A DNA stretch of 64,000 nucleotides from Bacillales bacterium. GTDB lineage: Bacteria > Bacillota_I > Bacilli_A > RF39 > UBA660. The stretch covers positions 8,650-72,649 of the forward strand of contig JAEEKZ010000018.1 in NCBI GenBank assembly GCA_016288635.1. The letters are read 5' to 3'. Both the position numbers and the translations under genes were made by a program. Shown here in pieces: positions 36,396 to 56,103 of this stretch. The notes beneath the pieces are model-generated. The model ran no database searches. It saw only the letters and a list, made by a program, of their open reading frames with translations, and was not told the origin of the DNA. How positions within the stretch are numbered: the first letter of the stretch is position 1; each line of letters begins with the position of its first letter.

Positions 36396-37526
36396 ATGAA
36401 TGATTTAAACATTGATTTTAAAACTAAAAAGAAAAAAGGAATTGGCATAGGTGGGCTAGTTTTGGCCTTTTTTGTGGGGTTATTATCAATGTTTTTAATA
36501 TCTAATGCTTATCCTTTAAATACTATTCTTTATAAAACTGAAGATGGTAAAATTGTTTATGAAACAAAGAGTGTTACTGTAACTGATGTTGGAATTGCTG
36601 AATCTGTTAAGAAAGTGTATGATGCTTCAGTTGTTGTAACTGCATATAAAGATGGTAAAATTACATCTACCGGTACAGGGTTTGTATTTAAAAAAGATAA
36701 AAATTTAGCTTATATTTTAACTAATCATCATGTTATTTCTAGTGCTCTAACTACTAGTGGAAAAGTATTTGTTACGTTTACAGATGACACAACACATGAA
36801 GTTACAGTTGTTGGTAGTAATCAATATGATGATATTGCTGTTTTAAGTATAGAAGCATCTAAGGTTAAATCTGTAGCTAAACTTGGAAGTAGTGAAAAGG
36901 CTGAAGTTGGCGATACAACATTTGTTATTGGAGCTCCAATGGGTACTGTTTATTCGTGGACTGTAACTAGAGGTATTTTATCTGGAAAGGATAGATTGGT
37001 TGAAGTTAGTGTAGCTAATAAAAATGTTGTTGATTATGTAATGAGAGTATTACAAACGGATGCTGCAGTTAACTCCGGTAATAGTGGAGGCCCTCTTTGT
37101 AATATTAATGGGGAAGTAATTGGCGTTGTTTCCCTAAAGGTTATTTCAAGTGGTGTTGAAGGAATGGGCTTTGCAATTCCTATTGAGGAAGCTTTACAGT
37201 ATGCTAATAAAATAATGTCGGGACAAGGTAATAAACTCCCTTATTTAGGTTTATCTATGGGCGATATTACTGCAGATATTGCAAATAAATATAATGTATC
37301 TAGTGGTGTTATTGTTAGATTTGTTGAATCTGGATCGTGTGCAGATGAAGGCGGCCTTAAAAAAGGTGATATTATTACAAAGTTAGGAAATACTAAGACA
37401 AAATCAACTATTTATTTAAGATATGCGTTATATAGATATAATGTTGGTGATAAAGTTGAAATAACCTTCTATAGAGATAATAAAGAGATGAAAACAGAAG
37501 TTATTTTAAAGGAAGCAAAGAACTAA
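36396..37526 (+). CDS. htrA: HtrA/DegP-family serine protease with PDZ domain
   Basis: N-terminal TM and a trypsin-like triad context (TNHHV, DIAVL, GNSGGPL). The C-terminal PDZ domain contains GLKKGDIITKLG. The ATG abuts the abi stop codon. Confidence 0.92.
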   Translation: MNDLNIDFKTKKKKGIGIGGLVLAFFVGLLSMFLISNAYPLNTILYKTEDGKIVYETKSVTVTDVGIAESVKKVYDASVVVTAYKDGKITSTGTGFVFKKDKNLAYILTNHHVISSALTTSGKVFVTFTDDTTHEVTVVGSNQYDDIAVLSIEASKVKSVAKLGSSEKAEVGDTTFVIGAPMGTVYSWTVTRGILSGKDRLVEVSVANKNVVDYVMRVLQTDAAVNSGNSGGPLCNINGEVIGVVSLKVISSGVEGMGFAIPIEEALQYANKIMSGQGNKLPYLGLSMGDITADIANKYNVSSGVIVRFVESGSCADEGGLKKGDIITKLGNTKTKSTIYLRYALYRYNVGDKVEITFYRDNKEMKTEVILKEAKN

Positions 37527-37550
37527 GTGTCAACACTTAGTTCTTTTTTA
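37519..37550 (+). terminator. strong intrinsic terminator after htrA (left boundary of island)
   Basis: 12-bp perfect inverted repeat AGAACTAAGTGT/ACACTTAGTTCT followed by T6. Confidence 0.85.
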
Positions 37551-37569
37551 TTTATAAATTAAAAAGGTA

Positions 37570-37599
37570 TTGTAATAAATAGACAAATAGTGTTAAAAT
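37570..37599 (+). promoter_or_regulatory. sigma-A type promoter of the island's first operon
   Basis: TTGTAA (37570-37575), 18 nt, TGtTAAAAT (37594-37599). SD AGGAAGGG precedes ATG 37620. Confidence 0.55.
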
Positions 37600-37619
37600 T
37601 ATTATATTAGGAAGGGTAT

Positions 37620-53301: not shown

Positions 53302-53334
53302 AATTATTTTTTATATAGATATAAATATAATATA

Positions 53335-53343
53335 TGATATAAT
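53335..53343 (+). promoter_or_regulatory. extended -10 element upstream of the coupling-protein gene
   Basis: TGaTATAAT (TATAAT 53338-53343), 24 nt upstream of ATG 53367. SD AAGGAGGGG. Confidence 0.45.
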
Positions 53344-53366
53344 TAATTAGAAAAGGAGGGGAATTT

Positions 53367-56081
53367 ATGCATTTTAAAGTAAAGAAAAAAGACTTTATTA
53401 TTTTCATTGTTTATTGCGTATTTTTCCTTTATATTTGTGCTTTAGTTGTGGTTAATGCTCTTTGGCTATTGAATAAGGGAGAATTCTATGGTATTTTTCC
53501 GTGGATTGCTGTTTTGTTTCCCTACAATTTTTTAACTGTAATTTTATTCTTAATTGTTGTATTTTGGACATTATCTTCAACTAAAAGTAGTATTTTTGAT
53601 AAAGATAGCGGAGGGAAAGGCTTATTTAGTTTAGTATTTGGTGATAAACCGTCAAACGGTTTTTCAAATTGGTCTTCCGAGAAGGATATGAGAAATGGAC
53701 AAGATGTTGTCAAAATTAATCCTTCAAGTGAAGAAACTAATGCTGCGGGGATTCCACTTATTAATAATGGTAGAGATGTATTTGTAGATAATGGTGAATA
53801 CCATAATATGGTTATCGGTTCTACCGGATCCGGTAAATCTACTACAATCGTTATTCCGTTAGTTACATTATTAGCTCGTCATGGTGAATCAATGATAATT
53901 ACAGACCCTAAGGGTGAGTTATATAGATCATCATCTGAGTATTTAAAAGAAAAAGGTTTTAATATTATACTTTTAAATTTCCGTGAGCCTTCGACAGGTA
54001 ATGCATGGAACCCTTTAGCGCTTCCATATGAGTATTATAAAAATGGTAAAGAAGATAAAGCTATAGAGTTGTTAACAGATATTTCTAAAAATATTATGTA
54101 TGAAAAAACTGATGATGTATTCTGGCAAAACTCTGCAGCTGACTACTTTGCCGGTATAGCTTTAGGATTATTTGAAGATGGAGAAATAGATGAAGTTAAC
54201 TTAAATAGTATAAGTTATGCAGCAAGTATTGGTGAAAAACGTGTGGGTATGAGTACTCTTATTAAAGAATACTTTAAACTTAAGGGTGAAGACTCACAAG
54301 CTTATTCTTATGCATCCGGTACTATTGATGCTCCAAATGAAACTAAGGGAAGTATTTTATCAACATTTAAACAAAAAGTTAGATTATTTACTTCTGGTAA
54401 AGCTTTAAGTGAAATGCTTTCTCATAGTGATTTTGATATGAGAGACATTGGTAGAAATAAAACTGCTGTTTTCCTAATTATTCATGATGAAAAGAAAACA
54501 TATCATGGATTAATGACAATATTTATTAAGCAATGTTATGAAACATTAATCGATGTTGCTCAAGAATGTGGAGGTAAGTTACCTCAAAGAACTAACTTTA
54601 TTCTTGATGAGTTTGCAAATATGCCACGACTTAATGATATTGATTCAATGATATCTGCAGCTCGTAGTAGATTGATAAGATTTACATTTATTATTCAAAA
54701 CTTTGCTCAGTTGGATGGAGTATATGGTAGTGAAGTAGCACTTACTATTCGTGGTAACTGTGGTAACACTGTATATTTGATATCTACTGAAACTAAGGCT
54801 TTGGAAGAAATTTCTAAGTTATGTGGTGATATTAAAGTTAAAGTTGGTAAAGGTGATAAAGAGGTTGAGGAAACTAGACCTTTGATATCTGTTACTGACT
54901 TACAAAAAATGAAACCATTTGAAGCCATTATTATGAGATTGCGTATGGCTCCATTTAGAACACAAATGACACCTTGTTTCAAAATGAACTGGGGTCTTAA
55001 ACAAGGAAATGCAGCATATTATGAAAGAGAATTAACTGAACCAAGGTTATTTGATATTGAAAAATATGTTAATGAACATAAAGAGCAGCCTTCTGGAGGT
55101 ATGCCGGGTATGCCTGGCGGTATGTTCGGTGGAGGTATGTCTGGAATGCCTGGCGGTATGTTTGGCGGAGGAGGCATGGGTGGAAGCATGTTTGGCCCTC
55201 CACCATCTAGTAAACCTTTATTTGAGGATCCTGTTCCAGGTGATAAACCTCCTAAGACAAGATCCACTGATTCTTCAGATACAGCATTCCCTAAGATTTC
55301 TGGATTAGAAAATATTGACTTCAATAATCTCGAGTCTGTTTCAGATGAGGATTTAGATAAGGCGCTTAAAGAACTTAATGAACAACTTAAGAAACTTAAC
55401 GACGAATCTGATGATAATGATGATATTAAGGCAAATGAAAATGATGATGATATTGTTGTCAAGAAAGATAATGACTCTGATTTATTTAAGAGTATGAAAT
55501 TCGATGACGATGATGATGATGACGATGATGATGTTATCATTGAAAATGATGTTAAATACGATGCAAATGATGATTCAAAGGCTATTGATGCAAAAATAAT
55601 TTCTGATTCAGATGACGATAATAAAAAGGATGATAGTTATATTCCTCCTTTTGAAAGTAGTAGATTTAATTTTGAATTTGATGATGATGATGATGACGAT
55701 GATGACGACGATGATAAAAAAGAAGAAGTATCTGTTGTTGGTATTCCAAATATGTTCAATTCTCATGGAAATAAAATTAATAATACCATTAATGTGTCAG
55801 AGATATCAAACGATGATTCAAAGGATGATGCTAAGGCAACGTTTAATTATATTGATGAAAATCAAAATAGTGAAAGTGAGTCTCATGGATATTTAGATGA
55901 TGATTATCAATCTCCAAGTGATAATGCTTCTAGTACCGATAGTAGTGAAATTAAGCCTGATAAATCCTCTACATCAACTGATTCAGATTTTAAATATAAA
56001 GTTGATAATGATAGTGTTATTGTTAACGAAAATATCGTTACAGATGATGAATACTATGATGATTTCTTTGGAGATGAATAA
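53367..56081 (+). CDS. VirD4/TraG-family type IV coupling protein with ~330-aa low-complexity C-terminal extension
   Basis: 904 aa with two N-terminal TM helices, Walker A VIGSTGSGKSTT, ITDPKGE, Walker B FILDEFANM and IIQNFAQL. The tail has Gly/Met repeats and poly-Asp runs. Confidence 0.8.
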   Translation: MHFKVKKKDFIIFIVYCVFFLYICALVVVNALWLLNKGEFYGIFPWIAVLFPYNFLTVILFLIVVFWTLSSTKSSIFDKDSGGKGLFSLVFGDKPSNGFSNWSSEKDMRNGQDVVKINPSSEETNAAGIPLINNGRDVFVDNGEYHNMVIGSTGSGKSTTIVIPLVTLLARHGESMIITDPKGELYRSSSEYLKEKGFNIILLNFREPSTGNAWNPLALPYEYYKNGKEDKAIELLTDISKNIMYEKTDDVFWQNSAADYFAGIALGLFEDGEIDEVNLNSISYAASIGEKRVGMSTLIKEYFKLKGEDSQAYSYASGTIDAPNETKGSILSTFKQKVRLFTSGKALSEMLSHSDFDMRDIGRNKTAVFLIIHDEKKTYHGLMTIFIKQCYETLIDVAQECGGKLPQRTNFILDEFANMPRLNDIDSMISAARSRLIRFTFIIQNFAQLDGVYGSEVALTIRGNCGNTVYLISTETKALEEISKLCGDIKVKVGKGDKEVEETRPLISVTDLQKMKPFEAIIMRLRMAPFRTQMTPCFKMNWGLKQGNAAYYERELTEPRLFDIEKYVNEHKEQPSGGMPGMPGGMFGGGMSGMPGGMFGGGGMGGSMFGPPPSSKPLFEDPVPGDKPPKTRSTDSSDTAFPKISGLENIDFNNLESVSDEDLDKALKELNEQLKKLNDESDDNDDIKANENDDDIVVKKDNDSDLFKSMKFDDDDDDDDDDVIIENDVKYDANDDSKAIDAKIISDSDDDNKKDDSYIPPFESSRFNFEFDDDDDDDDDDDDKKEEVSVVGIPNMFNSHGNKINNTINVSEISNDDSKDDAKATFNYIDENQNSESESHGYLDDDYQSPSDNASSTDSSEIKPDKSSTSTDSDFKYKVDNDSVIVNENIVTDDEYYDDFFGDE
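55095..55205 (+). repeat. in-frame Gly/Met(Pro/Phe) repeat GGMPGMPGGMFGGGMSGMPGGMFGGGGMGGSMFGPPP
   Basis: Near-identical units GGTATGCCTGGCGGTATGTT(C/T)GG occur twice within 55095-55205. Confidence 0.85.
55503..55715 (+). repeat. two GAT/GAC codon runs (about 10 and 12 consecutive Asp) in the coupling-protein tail
   Basis: By manual parsing, 55503-55532 holds 10 Asp codons and 55680-55715 holds 12 Asp codons. Confidence 0.85.
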
Positions 56082-56103
56082 GAACCTTTTGGTTCTTTTT
56101 TTA
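56080..56103 (+). terminator. intrinsic terminator (right boundary of island)
   Basis: AAGAACC/GGTTCTT stem with loop TTTT, followed by T-rich TTTTTTTAT. Confidence 0.75.

Follow-up and report, generated by a model that had tools for sequence, protein, structure and literature searches.

A predicted type IV secretion system fixed in an order of small-genome Bacilli, and the accessory operon lying beside it

Three described systems come closest to the locus reported here. One is borne by pBMB67 (NC_009841) of Bacillus thuringiensis and by similar plasmids of ~56-72 kb; it is typed conjugative. Another is the chromosomal type IV secretion system (T4SS) of Patescibacteria, e.g. Southlakia epibionticum ML1 (PMC12102498, PMC12857230), where the system is essential according to the passage of PMC12857230 that cites Wang et al. 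2023. In these cited papers no Gram-positive T4SS other than that of Patescibacteria is reported to have VirB2-like pilin paralogues. The last is the minimal module of mycoplasma integrative and conjugative elements (ICE), as in ICEA (CDS5, CDS13/15, CDS16 and CDS17), which also moves chromosomal DNA (PMC6030558, PMC12857230). Here, we analysed 64,000 nucleotides (the window, whose positions we use throughout) of a Bacillales bacterium of the order RF39 (assembly GCA_016288635.1, contig JAEEKZ010000018.1, positions 8,650 to 72,649, forward strand), and within them the block of genes lying between htrA and mscS at 37.5-56.1 kb. The part at 42.9-56.1 kb is, judging from its sequence, a monoderm T4SS of conjugation type; it is core to the lineage, vertically inherited and chromosomally fixed. 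The part at 37.6-42.85 kb is an accessory operon acquired within one genus. We give the explanation of the block as a core T4SS plus an unrelated accessory operon a probability of about three in four.

The genes of the predicted secretion module, F to N, are given below. Ratios of nonsynonymous to synonymous divergence (dN/dS), here and later, refer to the sister species, represented by contigs L157 and L158 at 80-85% nucleotide identity, with dS of ~0.7-1.2 for all genes.

42905..43378, + strand: F, VirB2-like T4SS pilin paralogue by family membership, with signal peptide, two transmembrane (TM) helices and a Cys-containing tail; dN/dS 0.32
43399..43788, + strand: G, second VirB2-like pilin paralogue, same family as F; dN/dS 0.25
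43799..46813, probable start ATG 43799, + strand: H, VirB6-like polytopic membrane protein with six hydrophobic segments and a ~550-aa Ala/Lys/Gln-rich tail
46840..49176, + strand: I, fused VirB4 paralogue, aligning end to end with K+L at 37%
49191..49505, + strand: J, VirB3/PrgI-like small membrane protein, by its two TM segments and position
49495..50055, + strand: K, VirB4 N-terminal domain as a separate open reading frame (ORF); NF045975 7e-14
50055..51845, + strand: L, VirB4 C-terminal ATPase; NF045975 1e-99, AAA_10 and TraG P-loop, CagE_TrbE_VirB for K+L
51870..53261, + strand: M, hyper-acidic Ser/Asp/Glu protein of 463 aa with one C-terminal TM helix, by composition and TM prediction
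53367..56081, + strand: N, coupling ATPase VirD4; two TM helices at the N-terminus, ~340-aa tail rich in Gly/Met and Asp; PF02534 4.7e-56, TraG-D_C

The ATPases carry the assignment. L matches the VirB4 C-domain of PDB entry 4AG5 at 1.8e-60 with intact Walker A and Walker B motifs, and N clears the curated cut-off of NF045973, the CD1115 family (290.8 vs 250 bits), with a Walker A at 151 and a Walker B-like motif at 411. K and L are predicted to give a single VirB4 encoded as two translationally coupled ORFs: the stop of K overlaps the start of L (TAATG), and K is a separate ORF in 78 of the 80 species-level loci that we compared. J has no profile match of its own in Pfam or NCBIfam; it lies directly upstream of VirB4 in 78/80 loci, and pBMB67 has a PrgI gene at the same position. 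The position of H is kept in 65/80 loci (median length 691 aa), and its matches to the Mycoplasma ICE membrane-protein models NF045848 and NF045889 (3e-8 and 2e-7) are weak, below cut-off and the only ones found. The family of F and G occurs in about two copies per locus (89 ORFs in 46 loci). PF18895 (T4SS_pilin) is matched by 15 of 35 of its members, at best with 3.6e-8, F and G themselves staying sub-threshold, and a search of PDB sequences gave only chance matches to G-protein-coupled receptors.

Among plasmids, pBMB67 provides the best match of the VirB4 C-terminal ATPase (29.8% over 99%). The order of genes is shared: a small protein, TrbL/VirB6, PrgI/VirB3, an ORF for the VirB4 N-domain and another for the C-domain (DUF87). 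K matches the separate N-domain ORF of the plasmid (25% identity, E 2e-19), the plasmid VirD4 falls in the same CD1115 family and is 30% identical to N, and Tad-like genes (SAF, AAA and T2SSE) are found both on the plasmid and in the chromosomal loci of our genome's relatives. H shows no pairwise similarity to the TrbL of pBMB67. The two systems differ in that on the plasmid VirD4 is immediately preceded by a MobP3 relaxase gene, which is found neither here nor in the 80 loci, and in that here VirD4 lies downstream and the system is chromosomal and lineage-wide, with no plasmid replicon.

The likeness to the mycoplasma ICE is more distant in score. The best NCBIfam VirB4 model is that of the ICE ATPase Mbov_0397, to which L scores 334.6 and I 245 bits, i.e. 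below the cut-off of 590, and H matches only the ICE membrane proteins Mbov_0396 and MMCAP2_0566 (30.8 vs 70 bits; cut-offs 90 and 70). Like the mycoplasma module, the copy of this genome is also without VirB1- and VirB8-like parts. The mycoplasma elements, however, are mobile, bounded by inverted repeats and equipped with a DDE (Mutator-like) transposase, CDS22; none of this was found here. A further difference is that relatives of our genome have wall hydrolases, which fits the prediction that most RF39 species have peptidoglycan (PMC10868615).

In evolutionary status the closest parallel is the T4SS of Patescibacteria, compared here by description. It too is monoderm-type, chromosomally fixed across a lineage of reduced genomes and without relaxase at most loci; it too has VirB2-like pilin paralogues next to virB4, along with VirB3-, VirB4-, VirB6- and VirD4-like parts. 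Yet Patescibacteria are another phylum, VirB4 is split here, and essentiality and an epibiotic lifestyle have been shown there. Relaxases are rare there (109 in 103 genomes, in a dataset of 2,474 virB4 genes, PMC12102498), whereas MOBV relaxases occur in 24 of 51 genomes of the family studied here.

The host genome measures 1.14 Mb in 63 contigs (89.5% complete, 28.6% GC), and ribosomal and housekeeping genes neighbour the locus on its chromosomal contig of 75 kb. To our knowledge, bacteria of this order are common gut inhabitants of humans and animals, none has yet been grown, and their genomes, of ~1 Mb, lack many pathways. In the papers on the order that we searched, we found no description of such a secretion system. 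Of the 24 genera of the family that were sampled, 23 have the split VirB4; across the order it occurs in 142 of 151 genomes, representing 81 of 86 genera, always as an ORF of ~595-620 aa with 59-71% identity; nine of the 151 genomes are without the VirB4 C-terminal ATPase. The gene order F/G-H-J-K-L...N recurs in the 80 species loci. J, K and L are invariant in order and spacing, H is found upstream in 65 and pilin genes in about half, and VirD4 follows 1.3-8 kb downstream of VirB4 in most loci whose contig reaches that far.

The ATPase diverges much as a housekeeping gene does. Pairwise distances of VirB4-C and FtsH in 21 genomes are correlated (r 0.50, Mantel p 0.0008), with agreement in several reciprocal nearest neighbours, and the VirB4-C of any two genera diverge by at least 13.6%. 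Selection is uneven along the locus. L has the lowest dN/dS of the block (0.019), below htrA (0.05), J (0.07), K (0.09) and I (0.098); the pilins and H range from 0.25 to 0.39, and within H the TM core has 0.16 and the tail 0.5. Distribution, FtsH-like divergence and dN/dS together indicate that the secretion module is old, vertically inherited and strongly selected, with fast-changing surface parts.

The copy in this genome has nevertheless been remodelled. I is seen only here and in L157 and L158. It keeps the P-loop lysine, and it has changed the DE of Walker B to DN, DPEGE to DESSE and ITQQ to SIEN, all three changes being conserved in the sister species. In the tree it sits within the VirB4 clade of its own genus, on a very long branch. 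Since it groups with its genus and its degenerate motifs are conserved in the sister species, I is probably a retained, non-catalytic duplicate of VirB4, re-fused and kept as a pseudo-ATPase under purifying selection. L itself is on an accelerated branch too (0.46 vs 0.11 for the same-genus genome G001). H and N bear long lineage-specific tails (1004 aa vs a median of 691, and 904 aa vs a median of 748).

Change is also apparent between L and N. The gene after VirB4 in relatives encodes M23 plus phage lysozyme domains in 24 loci, NlpC/P60 in nine, lysozyme plus CHAP in G001, and an uncharacterised 851-aa protein in 29 loci; small membrane proteins or lipoproteins follow, and then VirD4. A domain search found no wall hydrolase (VirB1-like) between L and N of this genome, and the small lipoprotein and membrane genes lying between VirB4 and VirD4 in relatives have no homologue in it. 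L157 retains a 937-aa M23 protein at the position of M. The hydrolase of G001 starts with an acidic region and a TM helix, followed by lysozyme and CHAP. Because this start is of the same kind as M, we take M to be the N-terminal remnant of such a gene, i.e. probably a VirB1-like wall hydrolase cut down to its acidic cytoplasmic part and anchor. The similarity of M to the N-parts of the relatives' hydrolases is mostly compositional.

Upstream of the module, many relatives have a Tad-like set (T2SSE ATPase, TadB/C-like membrane proteins and others). In our genome the set is detached and present in two copies, on contigs C52 (~94.7-102.2 kb and 49.0-49.8 kb) and C23 (0.5-6.6 kb). It comprises a T2SSE ATPase, two TadB/C-like membrane proteins, a TadZ-like and a TadE-like protein, with further genes of the T4SS_pilin family alongside.

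What lies upstream of the module here is the operon A-E:

37620..39023, + strand: A, membrane protein; three hydrophobic segments at the N-terminus, repetitive tail rich in Gln/Pro (Q 15%, P 8%); no family match
39026..40678, + strand: B, all-alpha protein of 550 aa, membrane helix at the C-terminus, its gene opening a portable B-C-D-E operon; 219 homologues
40688..40900, + strand: C, 70-aa protein of the B-C-D-E operon; a 58-aa ORF stands at the same position in L157, L158 and the Ca. Coprovivens locus
40903..41346, + strand: D, 147-aa protein of the B-C-D-E operon, overlapping E; no family match, a 31% identical copy in Ca. Coprovivens
41336..42853, + strand: E, AAA+ ATPase of the classic AAA clade with a ~230-aa N-domain; PF00004 2e-29, dN/dS 0.046

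The distribution of these genes is of another kind. In 40 relatives there is no homologue of B, and E gives only FtsH-level matches; orthologues of E occur sporadically in the class, in nine of 300 genomes. Ca. Coprovivens has B-C-D-E (identities of 41% for B, 31% for D and 66% for E) in an unrelated chromosomal context, not beside secretion genes. The layout relA-abiD-htrA-A-E-F...L is common only to this genome and the sister contigs L157 and L158. In G001, abiD-htrA lie on one contig and are followed by unrelated genes, and the T4SS lies on another, where it adjoins a homologue of the gene that follows mscS here; neither A-E nor I is present. The sister-only layout and the separation in G001 indicate that the block is a recent juxtaposition, by rearrangement within one genus. 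The operon would have been acquired within that genus and so have come to lie between htrA and the pilin genes; it is probably independent of the secretion system.

A is 55-61% identical to its counterpart in the sister species, with dN/dS 0.26. Pfam, NCBIfam, PHROGs and PADLOC returned nothing usable for B, and its AlphaFold model (28 homologues, pLDDT 75.8) matched nothing in the PDB above the noise of tetratricopeptide-like repeats, with TM-scores below 0.17. E aligns over its full length with the uncharacterised phage family phrog_8638 (3e-84). Among AAA+ defence pairs, IetAS comes to mind: E matches IetA models over the AAA domain (2e-26), and an AbiD gene lies 1.2 kb upstream. However, the operon lacks a protease partner of the IetS type, the NCBIfam IteA match is at 65.6 vs a cut-off of 510 bits, and B, C and D belong to no known family. 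We rejected A-E as a known defence system, the similarity to IetA being confined to the AAA core.

The original prediction had described 37.5-56.1 kb as one island sharply delimited by two strong intrinsic terminators. The signals concerned, together with a weaker hairpin, are these:

37517..37552, + strand: left intrinsic terminator, end of the abiD-htrA operon; 13-bp stem, T-run, -15.7 kcal/mol, z -5.8
37580..37608, + strand: promoter-like site before gene A; TAGACA-17-TATATT, 10/12 positions, consensus match only
42870..42898, + strand: promoter-like site before the secretion genes; TTGAAA-17-TATAAT, 11/12 positions, best in the stretch
53276..53302, + strand: A/T-only hairpin followed by a T-run, between M and virD4, weakly terminator-like; in the fold of 53258-53370, no better than shuffles
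53316..53343, + strand: promoter-like site before virD4; TAGATA-16-TATAAT, TG upstream
56080..56104, + strand: right intrinsic terminator, end of virD4; 7-bp stem plus T7, -10.5 kcal/mol, z -3.7

Both hairpins are real. The left one (37517-37546) is a perfect stem of 13 bp that closes a 4-nt loop and is followed by a T-run, and none of 200 shuffles folds as well; the right one pairs AAGAACC with GGTTCTT at 56080-56097, ahead of T7. They are the best of the 11 terminator-like sites on the + strand of the stretch (6.0 +/- 2.3 in shuffles). We also agree that the block is flanked by genes for an HtrA-type protease (Trypsin_2 plus PDZ) and an MscS channel, that its long ORFs are all on one strand (14/14 on +), and that promoter-like sites occur in three intergenic gaps. 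Low-complexity or hydrophobic residues make up nearly half of the total, 45% by a lenient entropy measure, a figure that varies with the threshold. The edges share no direct repeat (the longest common word, 12 nt, is matched by 12% of random segment pairs) and no long inverted repeat (11 nt at most). There is no tRNA gene in the 64-kb window and no recombinase or relaxase domain in its ORFs, a tblastn search of the window with tyrosine integrases was empty, and no transposase domain was found in the block.

It is the unity of the island that fails. Both hairpins are directly 3' of stop codons, that of htrA on the left and that of virD4, the last gene of the block, on the right, and are thus ordinary operon ends. 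Nearly all genes of the window are on the + strand, so that strand does not set the stretch apart, and GC skew is positive across the whole window. Promoter-like sites are in no excess (103 vs 106.9 in shuffles). The prediction had offered an island without integration signatures or, alternatively, ancient core present throughout the lineage. The latter holds for the 13.2-kb secretion module; acquisition holds for the 5.3-kb left operon, absent from all 40 relatives, and the two are no single island. The secretion system itself had gone unrecognised. The lesson for annotation is that two strong terminators and a block of genes on one strand do not make an island: distribution among relatives split this one into ancient core and recent accessory.

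Composition does not single out the block either. Its GC is 31.5% vs 28.6% for the genome, with 5-kb windows at the 57th-97th percentile, and their tetranucleotide distances lie at the 28th-94th percentile of genome windows. The GC bumps fall on coding stretches of low complexity (Gln/Pro, Ala/Gly and acidic), which account for this mild deviation. Synonymous codon typicality is at the 12th-69th percentile for all genes of the block (B and E at the 66th-69th) except A, where the atypical usage is due to its repeats only. Composition is thus native, and so is codon use apart from A.

Genes for mobility were sought more widely. Seven relaxase and integrase queries, plus the MobP3 of pBMB67, had no match in the window, nor in the 1.33 Mb that surround the module in 80 species, and this genome has no MobP3 homologue. 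The module here is without an attached relaxase, integrase or gene for oriT processing. Genome-wide, 51 genomes of the family gave MOBV (Mob_Pre) in 24, PF03432 in four, Rep_trans in one and MobA/MobL in none; these frequencies are lower bounds, because metagenome-assembled genomes often lose small mobile contigs. Integrative mobilisable elements (IME) need a helper transfer machine, and in most genomes of the family the resident module is the only candidate helper for such elements.

Our genome has small contigs of this sort. C12 (3,651 bp) encodes the C-terminal end of a tyrosine integrase (PF00589), then a MOBV relaxase (PF01076, 100 bits) and a Cys-rich repeat protein of 544 aa, which is the layout of an IME. 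C4 (3,155 bp) is probably a piece of another mobile element; on it, a gene for a MOBP-like relaxase (PF03432, 30 bits) precedes four small genes, one of which encodes a DUF2958 protein. The genome also encodes two orphan VirD4-like P-loop proteins, one at C48 5651-7009 (452 aa, 36% identical to N, without the N-terminal TM helices) and one at C29 16434-18104 (556 aa, beside ftsE-ftsX and an M23 peptidase). We rejected them as signs of an ICE, both being among housekeeping genes with no transfer genes near. In several genomes of the family, other contigs encode a second VirB4, which is fused (780-834 aa) and shares 27-32% identity with L; it probably belongs to genuine mobile conjugative elements that exist beside the core system.

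How might the module work? By its genes it would be a contact-dependent translocator. VirD4 would recruit a substrate at the membrane, VirB4 hexamers would power assembly and translocation through a channel of VirB6 and VirB3 (H and J), and the fast-evolving pilins (F and G, as a pilus or surface fibre) would contact the partner cell together with the surface tails. As substrate we tentatively favour, short of even odds, DNA supplied in trans, from IMEs bearing a relaxase or possibly from the chromosome, as in mycoplasma chromosomal transfer.

One might instead think of a non-conjugative system co-opted as in Patescibacteria, by which the cells make obligate contact with others and take up or exchange resources; its conservation would stem from the dependence of a host with a reduced genome. 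Near-universal presence under very strong constraint, the lack of a linked relaxase, the VirB2-like pilin paralogues, the fast-evolving surface parts in genomes of ~1 Mb, the Tad-like ATPase and membrane genes directly upstream in many relatives, and the essentiality in Southlakia noted above all point this way. But nothing shows these gut bacteria to be epibionts, and nine genomes do without the ATPase. VirD4 has been kept and MOBV mobilisable elements are common in the family, so that DNA transfer fits equally well. Hence, we regard this role as possible though rather unlikely. Still more broadly, one could speculate that this order of gut Bacilli with small genomes relies on direct cell contact with other microbes, be it in the role of epibiont, of parasite or of obligate exchanger of genes and nutrients, and that the relaxase-less T4SS and its pilins, with a Tad-like motor in most relatives, are the organ of this lifestyle, in parallel to Patescibacteria. 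This is a doubtful proposition. If it were true, the remodelling seen here (pseudo-ATPase paralogue, acidic anchor, long tails of VirB6 and VirD4) would be adaptation to a particular partner.

The independence of A-E might also be disputed. The operon could be a lineage-specific accessory of the T4SS that shares its transcript or its regulation and supplies, e.g., an AAA+ unfoldase or assembly factor along with a partner in the membrane. Only 51 nt, and no terminator-like hairpin, separate it from the pilin genes that follow, its layout is kept in three lineages that also share the VirB4 paralogue I, and all its genes are under purifying selection. Yet the B-C-D-E genes of Ca. Coprovivens are not beside secretion genes, a strong promoter-like site separates E from F, and more than 140 genomes have the T4SS without A-E. 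This makes such a function unlikely.

Secretion of protein effectors or toxins, against competing bacteria or an animal host, would be in keeping with the long lineage-specific tail of the coupling protein, with the variable interval between VirB4 and VirD4 in relatives (1.3 to 8 kb) and with the existence of Gram-positive T4SS that export effectors (PMC12857230). However, no toxin, immunity or effector-like domain was detected in the block, and the variable interval holds mostly wall hydrolases and small membrane proteins or lipoproteins. We find this reading improbable. That the whole 18.5 kb is one acquired island, or a decayed ICE with eroded integration signatures, is hardly credible: GC is slightly raised, the genes are of conjugation type with conjugative plasmids as closest plasmid relatives, and flanks vary among genera, but the secretion part is in 94% of the genomes of the order with housekeeping-like divergence, codon usage is native and the GC bumps are low-complexity coding, repeats, tRNA, integrase and relaxase are absent, and the left operon is distributed differently from the right part.

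Some points weigh against our explanation of a core T4SS with an unrelated operon beside it, or against its details. The correlation of VirB4 and FtsH distances is moderate and uses a single marker. H and J are identified mainly by position and topology. The survey of relaxases covered four Pfam families and a few BLAST queries, with MOBC, MOBH, MOBF and unrecognised relaxases outside it, and the frequencies it gave are minimal ones. A-E is directly upstream of the T4SS in three lineages and may have a functional link with it. M as a hydrolase remnant rests on position and architecture. Finally, peptidoglycan is predicted for the lineage (PMC10868615), so that this copy, which lacks a wall hydrolase, might be impaired; purifying selection speaks against this.

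A near-universal conjugation machine that is constrained more tightly than a housekeeping protease, and that has no DNA-processing genes, is a strong clue to lifestyle. It suggests either DNA exchange at a high rate, through a domesticated transfer apparatus that also serves the IMEs of about half of the genomes, or life on other cells as in Patescibacteria.

Some minor observations concern the VirB4 genes and the left flank. In L157 (18786-20574), VirB4-C is called as two ORFs (403 and 199 aa) and is intact in L158 (596 aa); a frameshift or an assembly error is possible. In another family of the class, L007 (G030:C10:644-2920) has a fused 789-aa VirB4, 36% identical to I, with two in-frame TAA codons, which could reflect either a pseudogene or stop-codon reassignment. 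Left of the block, abiD (AbiD/Abi_2; PADLOC AbiD 3e-54) abuts htrA without a gap (window 35445-37526), and the pair is kept in G001 at 75% and 54% identity, which makes for a stable link between a housekeeping protease and a putative gene for abortive infection. The adjacent RelA/SpoT gene (33880-35349) is 61-68% identical to the sister species vs 92-95% for AbiD and HtrA, an abrupt step in divergence just left of the block.

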